DNA from: an uncultured delta proteobacterium
GTDB taxonomy: Bacteria > Myxococcota > Myxococcia > Myxococcales > Myxococcaceae
Length of the DNA stretch: 64,000 bases
Direction: 5' to 3'
NCBI GenBank assembly: GCA_963771175.1
Contig: CAVYSY010000006.1
Span: forward strand, 107,103 to 171,102
In this document: in pieces, positions 22,400-36,385 of the stretch
How positions within the stretch are numbered: position 1 is the first letter of the stretch
How the letters are laid out: each line of letters starts with the position of its first letter
Made by a program: the position numbers and the translations under genes
The notes under the pieces: generated by a model
The model's input: only the letters and a program-made list of their open reading frames with translations
The model's database searches: none
What the model was told of the DNA's origin: nothing

Positions 22400-23267
22400 G
22401 GACCTGCGCGGCCTGGGGGCGGCGCCAGCTCGGTGCGCACGTCCCACAGCTCCGGGAAGAAGCGCAGGTCCAACGCCTTGCGCAGGAAGCCCACGCCCGA
22501 GGAGCCGCCCGTGCCCTGCTTGAAGCCGATGATGCGCTGCACCGTCATCATGTGGCGGTAGCGCCAGAGCTGGAAGCGCTCCTCGACGTCCACCAGCTTC
22601 TCGGCCATCTCGTAGGCGTCCCAGTGCTGCTCGGTGTTCTCGTAGATGCGGCGGAACACCTCCATCACCTGCGGCGCTCTTCTCGTAGGGCTGGCGCCAG
22701 TCGCGCTCCACGCGGTCGGCGGGCACCGGCGTGGCCCTTGCGCGCCAGGTAGCGCAGGAACTCGTCGTACACGCTGGGCGAGCTCCAGGCAGCCGCTCCA
22801 GCTCCGCGTGCACGCGCGGGCATGTGCTTGAAGGGCGCGAGCGCCTGCTCGTCCTTGTTGCCCAGCAGGAACTCCACCGCGCGGTACTGGTAGCTCTGGA
22901 AGCCCGAGGCCGGCCCCAGCGCGTCGCGGAACTCGAGGTACTCGTTGGGCGTGAGCGTCTCCAGCACGCTCCACTGCTCGAAGAGCATCCGCTGGATGTG
23001 CCCCACGCGCGCGAAAATCTTGAACGAGGGCTCCAGCTTGTCCGCCTGGATGTAGCGGATGCACGGCGGCGTCAGCTCGTGGATGAGCAGCTTCATCCAC
23101 AGCTCGCTCGTCTGGTGCTGGATGATGAAGAGCAGCTCGTCGTGGTGCGGCGGCTGCGAGCGCGGCACCTGCGCGGCCAGCAGCCGGTCCAGCTGCAGGT
23201 AGTCGCCGTACGTGGTCCGTCCGGCCAGCTCGGTGTGGATGCCGGGTTCCAGCTCGCGCTTGTTCAT
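22400..23267 (-). CDS. kynA: Tryptophan 2,3-dioxygenase (frameshifted; 3' end approximate)
   Basis: [59 protein letters not shown]. Confidence 0.92.
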
Positions 23268-23398
23268 GCGGCATCATGACCGGAATGCACGGAGCACGCA
23301 CCGCCGGGCCGCACGACACCGGCGTCCCGTCCGCAGCGGCGGAGCGAGGGCCCGCACGCCCGGACTCCCACCGCGAGCCGGGGAGGGTGCGAGCGCGG

Positions 23399-26797: not shown

Positions 26798-27109
26798 TCA
26801 GATTGCCTCCGCGGGTTGCAACAGGTTGAGCAAGGCCGTCCGCTGTTCCCTGGCCACACGCCGCCCTTCCCCCGTCAGCTCGTAGTACCGCCTGGGTCGC
26901 CCCCCTCGCTCGGGAAGGGGCTCGCCGTCGTAGCTGCGCAGGAACCCGTCCCGCTCCAGCGCCTTGAGCGCCGGATACACCGACCCCTCGTTCAGGAGAA
27001 TCTTCCCCTGCGTCCTCTCCCGGACCCGCTCGATGATCTCCAGCCCGAACCCCCTCCCCCCGATCAGCGACATCAGGATGGCTGTCCTAGCGGAAATCGG
27101 AGTGTCCAT
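26798..27109 (-). CDS. PadR-family transcriptional regulator
   Basis: GFGLEII, EGSVYPALKALERDG, RRYYELTGEG. Confidence 0.9.
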   Translation of the reverse strand: MDTPISARTAILMSLIGGRGFGLEIIERVRERTQGKILLNEGSVYPALKALERDGFLRSYDGEPLPERGGRPRRYYELTGEGRRVAREQRTALLNLLQPAEAI

Positions 27110-27177
27110 GGACCGCAAGGGTAACCGGAAAAACGTGGAGCGCAACCTAGAAACTTGAGGTTGCTCCCCTTGAAGGC

Positions 27178-27489
27178 TCAAGCCGAGAGCGCGAGGCGCG
27201 AGCACGGCCGGAGGGACTCCTCCTCCCGGGGAGGATTGGGGGGGCGAGGCCCGCGGGGGCTCGCGGGCAGCCGACTCGGAACCAGCACGGCCCGGCGCGA
27301 CGAGGTGATTCCGTCCTCCAGGTCGTCCCACAGGTCCGCGCCAGGCCCTCCCGGCGGGAGCTTCTCGGCCCATGGGCTCTTCGGCGTCATCTCAACCACC
27401 TGAACACCTCCCTGGGCTGCGGCGTTGATGGCCAACACCGTATCCTCAAGCCTTGAGGATTGCATTTTTCCACTCGTGCTGTCCTTCAT
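27178..27489 (-). CDS. Hypothetical protein sharing an EDG(I/L)TSSRR motif with 26399-26797
   Basis: SD-like GGAAGG upstream; shared motif. Confidence 0.4.
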   Translation of the reverse strand: MKDSTSGKMQSSRLEDTVLAINAAAQGGVQVVEMTPKSPWAEKLPPGGPGADLWDDLEDGITSSRRAVLVPSRLPASPRGPRPPNPPREEESLRPCSRLALSA

Positions 27490-28146: not shown

Positions 28147-28785
28147 ATGACCATGCGTTTGATGAAGACCCTGAGCCTCCTGGGTGGCCTCGCCGCCGCC
28201 GGGTGTGCCAGCACCTCGCCCCACGGCAACCTCAGCGCCCTCAGCGTCGCCTCCTCCCAGGACGCGGCCTTCTGCCAGCACCGCGTCCCCCAGGAGAACT
28301 GCACCCGCTGCCACCCCGAGCTCGTCCCCCGCTTCCAGGCCGCGAGGGACTGGTGCGGCGAGCACGGCGTGCCCGAGTCCCAGTGCTTCACCTGCCACCC
28401 GGACCTCTCCTTCGAGCCGCTCCCCGCGCTCGCCCCCGACGCGGACTTGAAGAAGCTCTCCCAGGAAGGAGAGGACGTCCCCGAGCTCGCCCCCCACGCC
28501 GTCCCCGGCAAGGTGACCGTCTTCGACTTCTACGCGGACTGGTGCCCGCCCTGCCGCAAGGTGGATGCCCACATGTTCGGCCTGCTCAACACACGCGGGG
28601 ACATCGCCTACCGCAAGCTCAACGTCGTCTCGTGGGACTCGCCGCTGGCCAGGCGCCACCTCGGGCAGGTGGAGAACCTGCCCTACCTCATCATCTATGG
28701 GAGGGACGGGAAGCTCGTGCGCGCCATCAACGGCTTCGACCTGGGCGCGCTGGATGCGGCCATCACCGAGGGGAGCGCGCGATGA
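28147..28785 (+). CDS. Lipoprotein with two CxxCH motifs and a thioredoxin domain
   Basis: Lipobox AAGC; CTRCH and CFTCH; FDFYADWCPPC. Confidence 0.8.
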   Translation: MTMRLMKTLSLLGGLAAAGCASTSPHGNLSALSVASSQDAAFCQHRVPQENCTRCHPELVPRFQAARDWCGEHGVPESQCFTCHPDLSFEPLPALAPDADLKKLSQEGEDVPELAPHAVPGKVTVFDFYADWCPPCRKVDAHMFGLLNTRGDIAYRKLNVVSWDSPLARRHLGQVENLPYLIIYGRDGKLVRAINGFDLGALDAAITEGSAR

Positions 28786-29795
28786 GATGGGTGGCCGTGG
28801 CCGTGGGGCTGCTCGGGCTCGCCATTCCCAACCGCGCCGCCGCCTGCGCGGGTTGAAGCAATCCCAACCTCCCGGTCGGGAGGGACACCGTTTCCATGCT
28901 ACGCGCCGGAGAGACCGGCGTGTCCCTGTCCACCCTCGTCACCGACGTGCGCGTGGTGCACCCGTCCGCATGCCCGGACATCGGCCCCATCTGCCAGGTG
29001 CGCGACGAGCCCCCGCAGCTCCATGACCAGCGCTTCACCATCGCCGAGCTGCGCGCCACCCTGGAGCACGCCCTCACCGATACCTTCGGTCTAGAGGTAC
29101 AGCTGCCCCTGCGCAGCCAGCGCACCACCGTGCGCTTCACCGCGTTGGATGGCACGCCCCTGGCGCTCGACTACGAGAACATCCACCACCGGAACGAGAC
29201 GCTCTTCGGCCTTGGAGACCCGTGGGTGCTGGGGCGCTACGCGGGGCGGCTCGGTGGCGTGGGGCTGGCGGCCCGGGCGGGCTTCACCGTGCCGCTCGGG
29301 AGCACCGTGGAGGACCCCTTCGCCCTCGGCGCCGCCGGACTCCCCCACCAGCACGTGCAGTTCGGCACCGGCACCGTGCAACCCCTGCTCGGGCTGGAGG
29401 CCTCGCGCACCTGGGGGAAGTGGGGCGCCCGCGCCTGGGGCCAGGCCCAGCTCTCACTCGTGGAGAACCGCTTCGGCTATCGCGCCGGCCACCGCTTCGC
29501 CGCGGGCCTCGCCGCCGAGGGTCCCCTCGTGGGCGCCCTGCGCTTCTCCGTGGGCGCGGACGTCGCCAACGAGCAGCCCGAGCGCTGGAGCGGGCTCGTC
29601 CAGCAGGATGGCAACCTCGGCCGCACCGACGTGCTCGCGGGGACGGGGCTGGCATACCCGCTCGGACCCGTGCGGCTCGGGCTCCACCTGCGCGTGCCCG
29701 TGTACCAGCGCATCATCGGACACCACGGGCAGCTCACCTACCCGGGCATCCTCCAGCTCAACGCGGGCACCACCTTCGGCGGCACGCGACGCTGA
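28782..29795 (+). CDS. Putative selenoprotein: signal peptide, CxxU, outer-membrane beta-barrel/transporter-like body
   Basis: ATG 28782 overlaps the upstream stop; in-frame TGA 28854-28856 after C-A-G; the same frame stays open to 29795; GLGDP and QFGTGT motifs plus amphipathic strands. Confidence 0.7.
28868..28883 (+). promoter_or_regulatory. Bacterial SECIS-like hairpin
   Basis: CCUCCC-GGUC-GGGAGG, with 17 nt between the UGA and the loop. Confidence 0.65.
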
Positions 29796-29970: not shown

Positions 29971-30360
29971 ATGTGGGCTCGCGCGTCGAACATCGTCCTG
30001 GGCATCTGGCTCATCTTCGCCCCCCTCGTGCTCGGGTATGACGCGCCGGCGGCCCGGTCCAACGACATCGTCGTGGGCCTCTTCCTGGCCACGTTCGCCC
30101 TCGTCGGCGCCATCGTGGGCAAGACGCGCTATCTCATCGTGCTCGCCATCTGGCTCATCGTGGCGCCCTTCGCCCTCGGGTACGGGAACGAGCTCGCCCC
30201 CGTCCTCAATGACGTCCTCGTGGGCATCGCCTCGCTCGGCCTGTCCCTCGTGCCCCCGCACCGGCGCGAGCGGGTGACCGCGCTCCAGCGGGAACCCGCG
30301 AGCACCGAGGAGAGGTGGGGGCGGCTGGGCGTGTCGCGGCGGACCCCCACGGGGGCGTAG
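29971..30360 (+). CDS. SPW-repeat membrane protein
   Basis: LGIWLIFAPLVLGY, WLIVAPFALGY, NDxxVG repeats. Confidence 0.8.
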   Translation: MWARASNIVLGIWLIFAPLVLGYDAPAARSNDIVVGLFLATFALVGAIVGKTRYLIVLAIWLIVAPFALGYGNELAPVLNDVLVGIASLGLSLVPPHRRERVTALQREPASTEERWGRLGVSRRTPTGA

Positions 30361-30377: not shown

Positions 30378-31784
30378 TCACTGCCGCCGGGCATCGTGGC
30401 CCAGCTCGCGGGCCGAGTCCTCCACGGGGTCCGGGCGCTTGTCGCGCATCGTCACGAACTCCTCGGCCGCGGTGGGATGGATGCCCACCGTCGAATCGAG
30501 CTGCTTCTTGGTGACGCCACACTTCAGCGCCACCGACAGGCCCTGGATGATTTCGGGCGCGTCCGCCCCCACCATGTGGAAGCCCAGCACCCGGCCGCTC
30601 TCGCGCTCCGCAATCACCTTCATCATCGTGCGCTCGTCCCGCCCGCTCAGCGTGTGCTTCATGGGCCGGAAGTTGGACACGTATACGTCCACGTTGCCGT
30701 AACGCTCGCGCGCCTCGGACTCGGTGCACCCCACCGTCCCCACCGGTGGCTGGCTGAACACCGCCGAGGCCACCCCCGTGTGGTCCATCTTCGTGGGGTT
30801 GTCGTGGAAGAGGGTCTCCGCCAGGGCCCGCCCCTCGGCGATGGCCACGGGCGTGAGGTTGATGCGGTCCGTCACGTCCCCCACCGCGTAGAGGCTCTCC
30901 ACGCTGGAGCGAGACCACTCGTCCACCTCCACCGCGCCGCGCTCGTCCAGCCGGACGCCCACCGCCTCCAGCCCGAGCCCCCGCGTGTTGGGTACCCGCC
31001 CCGTGGCGTACAGCACCACGTCCACCTCGAGCGTGTCGCCCATGCGCGTCAGCAGGCTCAGCGTGCCGTCCGGGCGCTTCTCGATGTCTCGGATGAAGGT
31101 CTCCGGCCGCAGGTCGATGCCCTTCTTGCGCAACTCCTGGGTGAGCATCGCGCGGATGTCCTCATCGAAGCCGCGCAACACCGTGTCGCCGCGGAGGAGC
31201 ATCGTCACCTTCGAGCCCAACGCGTTGAAGATGCCCGCGAACTCCACCCCGATGTAGCCCCCTCCCACGATGGCCACCCGGCGCGGCAGCTCCGGCAGGT
31301 CGAGCGCCCCGTCCGAGGAGATGGCGTGCTCGATGCCCGGTATCTCGGGGAAGAACGGACGCGAGCCCGTGGCCACCAGGATGCGCTCCGTCGTGTAGCG
31401 CTGGCCGCCCACCTCCACCGTGTGCGCGTCGACGATGCGACCCCGGCCTTCAATCAGCTGCACCCCCGTGTCCCGCAGCAGGCGCCTGTACACGCCATCG
31501 AGCCGCGCCAGCTCCTTGTCCTTCGCCGCCTGGAGCTTCTTCCAGTCGAACGTCGGCTCCGGCACCGACCAGCCGTAGCCCGCCGCATCCTCGAAGTCCG
31601 CGTGGAAGTGGGCGCCGTAGACGAGCAGCTTCTTGGGCACGCACCCCCGGTGCACGCAGGTGCCACCAATGCGGTTGTCCTCGCAGATGGCCACGCGCGC
31701 GCCGTACGAGCCCGCGCGGCGGCTCGAGGCCACACCGCCCGAGCCCGCGCCAATGGTGAACAGGTCGAAATCGTATGGGGGCAT
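30378..31784 (-). CDS. gor: Glutathione-disulfide reductase
   Basis: IGAGSGG, GGTCVHRGCVPKK, GGGYIGVEF, GIHPTAAEE. Confidence 0.92.
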   Translation of the reverse strand: MPPYDFDLFTIGAGSGGVASSRRAGSYGARVAICEDNRIGGTCVHRGCVPKKLLVYGAHFHADFEDAAGYGWSVPEPTFDWKKLQAAKDKELARLDGVYRRLLRDTGVQLIEGRGRIVDAHTVEVGGQRYTTERILVATGSRPFFPEIPGIEHAISSDGALDLPELPRRVAIVGGGYIGVEFAGIFNALGSKVTMLLRGDTVLRGFDEDIRAMLTQELRKKGIDLRPETFIRDIEKRPDGTLSLLTRMGDTLEVDVVLYATGRVPNTRGLGLEAVGVRLDERGAVEVDEWSRSSVESLYAVGDVTDRINLTPVAIAEGRALAETLFHDNPTKMDHTGVASAVFSQPPVGTVGCTESEARERYGNVDVYVSNFRPMKHTLSGRDERTMMKVIAERESGRVLGFHMVGADAPEIIQGLSVALKCGVTKKQLDSTVGIHPTAAEEFVTMRDKRPDPVEDSARELGHDARRQ

Positions 31785-32345: not shown

Positions 32346-32681
32346 ATGTGGGCTCGCTGGTTGAACGTCATCCTCGGCTTCTGGTTGGTGTCCGCGCCCT
32401 TCGTGCTCGATTACCGCATCAACCAGGCCCAGTTGAATGACCTGTGTGTGGGGCTCGGCATCATCCTGTTCGAGCTGGGCACCATCGCCGTCCGGAAGCT
32501 GCGCTACGCGAATACCCTGCTCGCGGTGTGGCTCATCGTGTCCCCCTTCGTCTTGGGTTACGGCGGCTACCGCACCGCCACCCGCAACGACATCATCGTG
32601 GGCCTGCTCGTCGGCGCCCTCTCGCTCGTCTGGGATCACCGCGCGTGGACGCCCCACCGCAGGCCCCTCGCCGAGATGTAG
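32346..32681 (+). CDS. SPW-repeat membrane protein
   Basis: MWARWLNVILGFWL...SAPFVL, WLIVSPFVLGY; paralog of 29971. Confidence 0.8.
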   Translation: MWARWLNVILGFWLVSAPFVLDYRINQAQLNDLCVGLGIILFELGTIAVRKLRYANTLLAVWLIVSPFVLGYGGYRTATRNDIIVGLLVGALSLVWDHRAWTPHRRPLAEM

Positions 32682-35456: not shown

Positions 35457-36385
35457 ATGCGGAACATCTTACTTTTCCGGTCTACCCTGCTCCTTGCCCT
35501 CGTGGCATCCGTGGCTGGGGCCAGCGAGCGCGAGCCCAACGAACGGAACATCTACCTCTCGGAGCCATCCGAGCCAGGAAGCGCCGGACGTGTACGTCGT
35601 CGGCGGTATCGGAACCCTCCTCCGCATGGAGCAGCCCTGTGATGCGGCGCGCACGAGGATGTTGGACTGGGAAGGCCGCTTCGAGCCCGTGGCGTGTGTC
35701 GGCAACTCGGTGCTCGTGGTGCCACTGCGCGACATCAGGCCCGAAGACCGCTTCATGCTGCTGGTCACGCTCGCGGACGGGACGGAGCTTCCCTTCACCG
35801 TGACCTCACGGCAGAAGAACCTCAGTCGACCGGACGGGGGATCAGCAGGTCAACGTGTTCCGGGACCACGAGGCTCCGCACGCGGTGCTCGCGTCCCTGT
35901 ACGACTCGCTCGGAAGGGAGCGGGAGCTGCGAGCCAAGGTCGAGCGGCTCACGAAAGAGGACTCCGTCGACCACGCGCTCGCCGCGCTCCTGCTGAAGGG
36001 CGCCAGGGCACAGACGCCCTTCGTCGAGACCCAGAGGCGACTGGTTCGGGAAGAGAATGCGGAAGTGCTCGTCCGCCTCTTCGCGGGAAGAACGAAGGCG
36101 GCCGTCGTCTTCGACATCAAGAACCAGGATCCGAAGTACGACTGGACCTTGATGCAGGCCCGCCTGTCGAACCCGCGCACAGGGCAGTTGCGCTCCTTTG
36201 CCCTGCGCACGAATCGGGACGAAATCCCCCCGGGCGGTTCCGGGCTCGTTGTCATCGTCGCGGACAAGAACGCCTTCACCTCGACGAAGAAGGGCCTTGA
36301 GCCCCTCGTGCTCGAGCTCTTCCGCCAGGAAGACGGACTCCGGCAGGTCGCCGTTGTCCTGGATCCTCGACTGCTGCTCAAGTAG
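35457..36385 (+). CDS. DUF2381-family protein (frameshifted)
   Basis: LLRMEQPCD, EDRFMLLVTLADGTELPF, DQQVNVF, EIPPGGSG..VIVAD. Confidence 0.75.

Follow-up and report, generated by a model that had tools for sequence, protein, structure and literature searches.

A predicted outer-membrane barrel selenoprotein and its thioredoxin-like partner form a two-gene module in Myxococcota

Does an in-frame TGA codon end a gene or encode selenocysteine (Sec, U)? This question is raised by a locus in a stretch of 64,000 nucleotides (nt), referred to here as the window, from an uncultured delta proteobacterium of the family Myxococcaceae (assembly GCA_963771175.1, contig CAVYSY010000006.1, positions 107,103 to 171,102). 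In the window, an ATG (28782-28784) overlaps the stop codon of a thioredoxin-like open reading frame (ORF; TGA at 28783-28785) in the arrangement ATGA. The first 21 codons from this ATG read MRWVAVAVGLLGLAIPNRAAA and are followed by TGC (28845-28847), GCG, GGT and an in-frame TGA at 28854-28856. Past this TGA the same frame reads SNPNLPVGRDTVS, joins a listed ORF of 299 amino acids (ATG at 28896) and ends with the TGA at 29793-29795. A hairpin with the stem CCTCCC (28868-28873) and GGGAGG (28878-28883) and the loop GGTC (28874-28877) follows the in-frame TGA, its stem beginning at 11 nt and its loop at 17 nt after the UGA. A sequence-only reading of the window had proposed that one gene is split here, and the overlapping ATG, the C-A-G-TGA run, the perfect 6-bp stem and the GGUC loop 17 nt past the UGA were all found where that reading had placed them. 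Bacterial selenocysteine insertion sequence (SECIS) elements sit just 3' of the UGA, and CxxU is a classic selenoprotein motif. Comparison with related loci suggests that the window gene is almost certainly a real selenoprotein. The core of the sequence-only reading, an exported barrel selenoprotein with a SECIS just 3' of the UGA that standard annotation truncates, is thus supported.

A six-frame search of 41 related genomes revealed the gene in 17 of them, including its own genome, at E <= 1e-65. All ten other full-length orthologues from the same genus (82-89% identity), which would be Archangium judging from the names of database entries, contain exactly one in-frame TGA, at the same column, and their translations read C-A-G-U-S-N-P-N-L-P-V-G-R. 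In the same search, two orthologues (61% and 52% identity) read C-A-G-C and four from other families (about 40% identity) read U-A-G-U. When a sample of 401 genomes from the phylum was searched with a profile, 91 genomes matched at E <= 0.001. After the addition of flanking sequence, the resulting set comprised 64 distinct related loci from 63 Myxococcota genomes; a remote, weak CxxC-like paralogue (L093) was excluded. Analysis of the motif in these 64 loci revealed CxxU in 22, UxxU in 33 and CxxC in nine, and an in-frame UGA is present in 55. The residue alternating with Sec in the orthologues is Cys and never Trp. The motif of the family is U/C-x-x-U/C, a Sec/Cys pair at both positions. To the CxxU motif of the sequence-only reading this adds that the first Cys is itself Sec in 33 of the 64 loci.

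In an alignment of 49 sequences (U read as C), the residues C22, G24, C25 (the Sec position), S26, N27, P28 and L30 are invariant, and for this reason the stretch upstream of 28896 is among the best-conserved parts of the protein. The 13 codons between the TGA and ATG 28896 are conserved, together with the preceding signal peptide. The homologues that the sequence-only reading had suggested looking for, with a conserved UGA or with Cys, were both found at exactly this column, and the conservation it had suggested looking for upstream of 28896 is seen in S26, N27, P28 and L30. Proteins of the Cys form in databases are full length (340-364 amino acids) and start with a signal peptide followed by A/CAGCSNPNLP, where the slash marks the end of the signal peptide.

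A different account of the TGA is that it is a sequencing error, a fresh nonsense mutation in a pseudogene or a true stop, with the real start at ATG 28896. The draft genome (9.83 Mb, 58 contigs, 81.66% complete) has frame errors, such as a split selA, and public records start past the TGA: entries from Archangium, Pyxidicoccus and Hyalangium are 'hypothetical proteins' of 279-299 amino acids that begin past the UGA, without signal peptide or motif. Against this account, 55 loci of other species have the TGA in this very column, the signal peptide is conserved, as are the codons from the TGA to 28896 with their invariant residues, and the ORF from 28896 would be an outer-membrane barrel without a signal peptide. 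Furthermore, contigs of two public sequencing runs equal the window at 28854-28856 and across the hairpin, so that the TGA is kept in independent data, as the sequence-only reading had proposed to check. The first of these contigs (99+% alike, depth 35) is possibly from the source sample; the second belongs to a relative at 95-99%. None of the public runs listed was an RNA data set. An error or a true stop is thus scarcely credible. The argument of the sequence-only reading that other apparent errors in the window are indels and not stop-creating substitutions is not needed for this and proves nothing by itself. At positions 28735 (T>C) and 28758 (G>C), both in the thioredoxin-like gene, the public contig that is 99+% alike departs from the window, through either strain variation or an error of assembly.

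The hairpin was compared across 54 loci of the Sec form and eight of the Cys form; a sixth Sec form encoding L-P-G-G (L089) was left out. In all 49 Sec-form loci encoding L-P-V-G, six of six stem pairs and the GGUC loop are present in the same register. Seven stem variants were identified (CCUCCC/GGGAGG, CCUCCC/GGGGGG, GCUCCC/GGGGGC, CCUGCC/GGCGGG, CCUUCC/GGAGGG, GCUUCC/GGAGGC and UCUCCC/GGGGGA). In the alignment of the 54 Sec forms, 91.5% of cells are paired against 82.0% in column shuffles, and the covariation score is 0.275 against 0.126 (none of 500 shuffles as high in either case); these shuffle figures are not probabilities because the sequences are related, and slid 3' partners, a control that keeps the relatedness, reach at most 63.5% paired. 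Compensatory changes were observed at stem pair 24/39 (CG 32, GC 11, UA 4) and at stem pair 27/36 (CG 42, UA 3, GC 2), and a seventh pair, 23/40, is AU in 19 and CG in 11. Five distant Sec forms encoding L-P-G-G have only four of six pairs in the standard register; read by eye, they have a stem of 5-6 bp, displaced by one base, around a CGGGY loop. Among the eight Cys forms, 0-5 of the six positions pair and GGUC occurs in none, although the encoded peptide is identical or almost so in seven of them. The search for a conserved hairpin suggested by the sequence-only reading thus revealed one that is kept and covaries across Sec forms and is broken in the eight Cys forms.

Codon usage in the hairpin follows the same division. 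The Arg codon of the stem is AGG in all 19 Sec forms with Arg at that position and CGN in all seven such Cys forms, and the Val codon is GUC in 49 of 49 L-P-V-G Sec forms. Both are uncommon in five genes of the window, where AGG accounts for 9 of 254 Arg codons and GTC for 31 of 205 Val codons. Such codon choice maintains the stem. In UxxU forms one hairpin must serve both UGAs, at 20 and 11 nt, because the UGAs are 9 nt apart and leave no space for a second. The element resembles the SECIS of Escherichia coli fdhF, whose loop and similar spacing the sequence-only reading had also cited, in being a hairpin within coding sequence with the stem 11 nt past the UGA and an apical GGUC. It differs in its shorter stem (6-7 bp), in the lack of a bulged U and, in UxxU forms, in one hairpin serving two UGAs.

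The machinery for Sec insertion was found in the same genome: a tRNA-Sec with anticodon UCA, selA over the cut-off, the SelB-specific wing domain and selD, which completes the set of genes that the sequence-only reading had suggested searching for. The selA gene is split into six pieces in several frames (contig C39:363984-365067). In congeners each genome has one intact selA match, 1-366, and indel errors of the draft assembly fit the split better than a dead gene. The selD gene (contig C26:42756-43685, minus strand) has an in-frame TGA. Its active site reads H-C-A-G-U-A-A-K, which includes the same C-A-G-U tetrapeptide as the barrel protein, and a hairpin lies about 28 nt past its UGA, with the loop GUU within CAGGUUCUG; the selD product is itself a predicted selenoprotein. 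Of the 401 genomes of the phylum sample, 297 gave a SelA match, a tally that includes one genome without the barrel gene that is flagged as unpublished (G224); of the 52 with a Sec form 48 gave one, and of the seven with a Cys form only, four.

Three points weigh against the recoding of this UGA as Sec. The hairpin of the window folded as a single sequence (61 nt) is thermodynamically ordinary (z = -0.79, with 41 of 200 shuffles folding as well), and for this reason the window sequence by itself could not decide the question. Rfam, scanned with 28780-28960 at E <= 10, returned no SECIS family and four matches at chance level. Finally, four of the 52 Sec-form genomes (74%, 78%, 89% and 96% complete) gave no SelA match. 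That the UGA is instead read as Cys or Trp by an ordinary tRNA is very improbable: the GGUC hairpin at 11 nt is kept by compensatory changes only in UGA forms, the Sec machinery is present, and the alternative residue in orthologues is Cys and never Trp. The comparative data exceed chance, since the UGA, the loop and the pairing are conserved and covary across the 54 Sec-form loci.

In homologues, a hydrophobic N-terminal stretch that mostly ends with a small residue (Ala or Gly) stands directly before the first C or U of the motif, and the signal peptide is predicted to be cleaved directly before C-A-G-U. The end A-A-A-C also resembles a weak lipobox, and a homologue from Melittangium is named 'Lipoprotein' in one source. 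If the protein were a lipoprotein, the first Cys or Sec of the motif would be the lipidated +1 residue and only the second Sec would be free. This is improbable, since the +1 residue is Sec in 33 of the 64 loci, position -2 is often E, H, D or Y (AEA/C, AHA/C, ADA/U, AYA/U, cut at the slash), the usual Leu at -3 occurs in none, and the body of the protein is a predicted integral beta-barrel.

Distribution of the motif states was analyzed on a maximum-likelihood tree of 62 barrel domains from which the motif had been removed (L085 and L089 were left out). At least six changes of motif state are required, compared with a mean of 24.8 after shuffling (none of 200 shuffles as low). Seven CxxC rows group in a single starred clade that lies within UxxU rows, and the CxxU clade that contains the window, with 21 rows, includes one UxxU. 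The midpoint root has UxxU on either side; this root is not established, and long branches join at the base. UxxU may be the older state, with Cys replacing Sec later at one or both positions. One genome (G225) holds two paralogues, L076 and L039; of the two, a CxxC form stands unfused behind an upstream partner gene, and a UxxU form is fused to a thioredoxin and an HMBD domain.

What kind of protein carries the motif? AlphaFold2 on the 49-row alignment gave a model (predicted local distance difference test, pLDDT, 85.1; predicted template-modelling score, pTM, 0.82) with twelve beta-strands in residues 45-332, a count that treats the pieces 139-144 and 148-157 as one strand. The sequence-only reading of an outer-membrane barrel agrees with this predicted 12-stranded fold. 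Foldseek against the PDB ranked 4RL8, the COG4313 channel of Pseudomonas putida, at the top (E 5e-11, template-modelling score 0.75 on target), followed by FapF and then by FadL/TodX and autotransporter barrels. A PDB sequence search with the family profile gave no match at E <= 1. PF13557 is matched by three of the 49 aligned homologues (best E 1e-9) and occurs in 16-83% of members of the nearest language-model Atlas clusters of a Cys homologue. By its modelled fold, the family appears to be a remote branch of the COG4313 / Phenol_MetA_deg barrels. Other invariant residues in the 49-sequence alignment are a second Cys pair, C64-x6-C71 (28971-28994), His 60, 81, 135, 136, 189 and 191, and several Glu, Asp and Arg. 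Judging from strand order in the model, most of the invariant His, Cys and charged residues would lie in or near outer-side loops.

Like the COG4313/PF13557 channel Pput2725 of Pseudomonas putida F1 (4RL8), the window protein is predicted to be a 12-stranded barrel of the monomer type, about 300 residues long and with a short segment before strand 1; their identity is 15%, and the window protein has no PF13557 match at E <= 1. In the crystal structure, as given in the accessible part of its report, about 14 residues before strand 1 are folded into the lumen on the periplasmic side (PMC4493636). The segment of the barrel family that matches this N-terminal stretch is U/C-A-G-U-S-N-P-N-L-P. The U/C-x-x-U/C motif, the Cys pair, the six His and a thioredoxin partner are features of the window family that the same part of that report does not give for COG4313 channels (PMC4493636).

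The gene directly upstream encodes the second component. Its product has a signal peptide with a lipobox-like end (LAAAG/C), a Cys/His-rich region with two C-x-H...C-x-x-C/H-H-P knuckles and a thioredoxin-fold domain with the motif WCPPC. It matches Pfam Thioredoxin (PF00085) with 28.7 bits (cut-off 23.5) and Redoxin with 29.6 bits (cut-off 26.6). Among 39 aligned partners, C24, H26 and C33, C51, H54, C61, C64 and H65, and W113, C114 and C117 are invariant, and the active-site motif across loci is WCGPC, WCPPC or WCAPC. In 49 of 62 loci the next gene upstream is a homologue of the partner, which stops about 60-90 nt short of the barrel motif; in nine of the 62 the barrel protein itself continues at its C-terminus into a thioredoxin domain, as a fusion. 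Since both ends of a 12-stranded barrel face the periplasm, such a fusion places the thioredoxin site on the same side as the N-terminal motif. Clustering of the flanks of the 62 loci revealed only shadow frames of the two genes and no other conserved neighbour. The conserved unit is two genes, partner and barrel, and the barrel very probably works with the thioredoxin-like protein. Prediction of a barrel-partner complex for a natural Cys-form pair from a congener scored 0.06, which gives no answer on binding in either direction.

What accompanies the thioredoxin domain in the partner varies among lineages. Relatives of the window have the two Cys/His knuckles, five distant lineages have an HMA-like CxxC domain of ferredoxin fold in their place, and two fusions (L076 and L080) carry HMBD (PF19335) at their C-terminus with 36.7 and 45.6 bits (cut-off 23.6). 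A thiophilic metal is proposed because three unrelated soft-metal modules, namely HMBD, the HMA-like domain and the Cys/His knuckles, occur on the same scaffold. The two CxxCH motifs of the partner were also considered as sites of a dihaem cytochrome, a candidate that was rejected because the first varies (CTRHH, CVLHH, CTRCN). The second (C61-x-x-C64-H65) is invariant in the 39 partners, and weak cytochrome matches were obtained (Cytochrome_C7, E 0.012; NrfH, E 7e-4), both far below the cut-offs.

Periplasmic thioredoxin-like reductases keep the Cys pairs of copper proteins reduced, as TlpA does with ScoI and CoxB, and as in the Scs system. The window partner shares with these systems the plan of a periplasmic thioredoxin-fold WCxxC protein dedicated to one Cys-pair client, and it has weak NCBIfam similarity to TlpA (E 0.02) and DsbE (E 0.015), far below the cut-offs. 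Unlike in TlpA and Scs, the client in the window would be an outer-membrane Sec barrel, and the thioredoxin-like protein has its own putative metal-binding module and is sometimes fused to its client.

Coordinates of the two genes and of the elements of the predicted selenoprotein gene in the window
Feature	Position	Strand	Basis
Partner gene (lipoprotein of 212 amino acids)	28147..28785	+	start and sequence as read; Pfam Thioredoxin and Redoxin matches
Full predicted selenoprotein gene, 337 codons and stop	28782..29795	+	read-through translation with UGA 28854-28856 as Sec
Predicted signal peptide, 21 codons, ends A-A-A	28782..28844	+	sequence; cleavage site as predicted
C-A-G-U codons TGC GCG GGT TGA	28845..28856	+	Sec codon 28854-28856; motif column in 64 loci
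SECIS-type hairpin, within the N-L-P-V-G-R codons	28868..28883	+	conservation, covariation
Barrel domain, residues ~45-332, twelve predicted beta-strands	28914..29777	+	AlphaFold2, Foldseek, invariant columns

Pfam scans of flanking ORFs (the window, and 76 hand-picked of 221 ORFs of at least 130 amino acids from 18 loci) revealed unrelated, changing genes. In the window, a PadR-family regulator (26798-27373, minus strand) lies upstream of the two-gene module in the opposite direction. A glutathione-reductase-like pyridine nucleotide-disulfide oxidoreductase (30378-31784, minus strand) lies 600 nt downstream of the selenoprotein gene, with SPW-repeat membrane proteins on either side (29972-30280 and 32346-32681, both plus strand); these SPW-repeat and oxidoreductase genes are not conserved with the module in other genera. 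Fragments of a tryptophan 2,3-dioxygenase (22668-23273, minus strand; profile positions 12-145 of 346) and of a DUF2381 protein (35804-36382, plus strand; profile positions 115-285 of 288) are probably further frame breaks of the assembly. A cation-efflux gene near L077 is an isolated hint. Two related genomes of low GC have an MMPL/RND-type transporter gene next to the gene for the HMA-like thioredoxin protein, upstream of it and on the same strand (L091:3275-4993 and L092:4353-6065, both minus strand), which may hint at an envelope-spanning export route in that lineage.

How might the two proteins work? We propose that a SelB-type SECIS 11 nt downstream recodes UGA 28854-28856 as Sec and that signal peptidase I cuts after a small residue, which would give a mature chain beginning C-A-G-U-S-N-P-N-L-P, or U-A-G-U in most relatives. 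About 20 residues past the motif, the chain would enter a 12-stranded outer-membrane beta-barrel of the COG4313/Phenol_MetA_deg kind. The product of the first gene would be a periplasmic lipoprotein that combines a WCxxC domain of thioredoxin fold with an accessory module for metal binding. By analogy with the N-terminus of the solved COG4313 channel, the (seleno)cysteine pair at the start of the mature chain would be located in or at the periplasmic opening of the barrel, and it would be the working site. The partner would reduce its selenenylsulfide or diselenide and so keep the pair reduced. Together with the His-rich interior or loops of the barrel, the reduced pair may bind or pass a Cu(I)/Ag(I)/Hg(II)-like metal or a metalloid at the outer membrane, and the ion may be delivered or received by the metal module of the partner in uptake, export or sequestration. 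The cleavage site, the N-terminus in the lumen, the reduction by the partner and the metal are the parts of this scheme that we infer. As a whole, the explanation of a selenoprotein barrel and a thioredoxin-like partner acting as a two-gene module is likely to be right. Metal handling as the function is a tentative assignment, somewhat less likely than not, suggested by the accessory modules. In the sequence-only reading the protein was taken for an exported barrel involved in metal binding or redox; the exported barrel holds, and the function, though supported by a thioredoxin partner with metal modules, is still a matter of interpretation.

A purely redox role would need no metal. The pair would then be a thioredoxin-recycled catalytic site, for example of a peroxide, disulfide or chalcogen-oxyanion reductase, or it would itself be a redox-controlled plug that opens or closes a channel for hydrophobic molecules, a kind of channel that has been proposed for other COG4313 proteins. 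The canonical reducing motif of the partner (WCGPC/WCPPC/WCAPC) and its Thioredoxin match over the Pfam cut-off agree with such a role, as does the glutathione-reductase-like gene 600 nt downstream on the other strand, which is, however, not conserved with the module. Among known bacterial selenoproteins, the majority act in redox chemistry and have UxxC or CxxU motifs, according to the accessible part of PMC13188914, and COG4313 channels are tied to the uptake of hydrophobic molecules in the corresponding part of PMC4493636. The three different metal modules on the thioredoxin-like protein across lineages are hard to explain without a metal, and the barrel has six invariant His in addition to invariant Glu and Asp. 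We consider a purely redox role possible and rather doubtful. A further reading is a selenium-bearing gate of the outer membrane, in which U/C-A-G-U would thread into the 12-stranded barrel and, with a ring of invariant His, make up the site of selectivity or transfer in the channel, and a dedicated periplasmic thioredoxin with its own metal-binding module would reset the selenol pair in each cycle; this reading is unlikely on present evidence.

Several observations count against the proposed barrel, its partnership or its link to metal. Four of the 62 loci have neither an upstream nor a fused thioredoxin; in two of these four, the record ends inside the barrel gene or within about 180 nt beyond it. 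The flanks are unconserved and name no metal pathway. The HMA matches (PF00403) of three distant partners reach 23.0, 20.5 and 16.7 bits, below the cut-off of 24.8, and the partner in the window itself has no match to a Pfam metal domain; by eye, it shares a similar C-x2-H...C-x2-C spacing with the metal modules. Its invariant C-x-x-C-H could instead be a single haem c site. The window protein matches no Pfam or NCBIfam (release 20) family at E <= 1, and because of this its membership of PF13557 is remote. Residues 12-44 of the model have low confidence (means of 42-68 in 10-residue blocks), and the position of the N-terminus in the lumen is for this reason drawn by analogy.

Is the family already known? 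Table 1 of a 2026 inventory (PMC13188914) has no entry for a Sec barrel family of this kind among 119 prokaryotic selenoprotein families, and the accessible parts of the deep-Sep paper, the Haft 2022 preprint and a 2006 survey mention no myxobacterial barrel. No paper that connects selenoproteins to myxobacteria or to COG4313 came up in a full-text literature search; the family might be listed in Haft and Tolstoy 2025, in Deng et al. 2026 or in the supplements of the deep-Sep paper. Table 1 of the 2026 inventory lists two other outer-membrane barrel selenoproteins, a TonB-dependent receptor and the GSU2204 MtrB/PioB barrel, one of them with CxxU (PMC13188914). The NCBIfam scan, which includes the models of both, gave no match for the window protein at E <= 1, and unlike in those barrels, the predicted Sec pair of the window family lies at the extreme N-terminus of the mature chain. 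TonB-type receptors are 22-strand barrels and MtrB-type barrels are large, and these families differ from the window barrel.

Selenoproteins with Sec in place of Cys in a metal site were also compared. The UxxU metal-binding protein NF041115, a MerT-like transporter, a UxxC P-type ATPase and the SO_0444 Cu/Zn efflux transporter share the U/C-x-x-U/C motif and a tie to heavy metals, as listed in Table 1 of PMC13188914. In the window family this tie consists of the HMBD and HMA-like modules of the partner. There is no relation in sequence to these proteins, and the motif of the window family is on a predicted outer-membrane barrel, for which metal binding is a proposal. Overall, our analysis suggests that the Sec barrel family is real, widespread, apparently unlisted and systematically mis-annotated. 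The recoding mechanism is ordinary; a Sec pair on an outer-membrane barrel and a dedicated thioredoxin-like partner are not.

One consequence concerns annotation, since dozens of genomes mis-state this gene and the error is a systematic one. The hosts are mostly aerobic soil predators that are not known for large selenoproteomes, and Sec occupies an unusual place in this family, at the very start of the mature chain of a predicted outer-membrane barrel and in many cases as UxxU with a single hairpin for both codons. Fusion to a thioredoxin with swappable metal modules provides a testable idea of how a redox- or metal-active site at the outer membrane may be serviced. If the reading as a gate is true, the role of selenocysteine here would be in transport rather than in a soluble redox enzyme.

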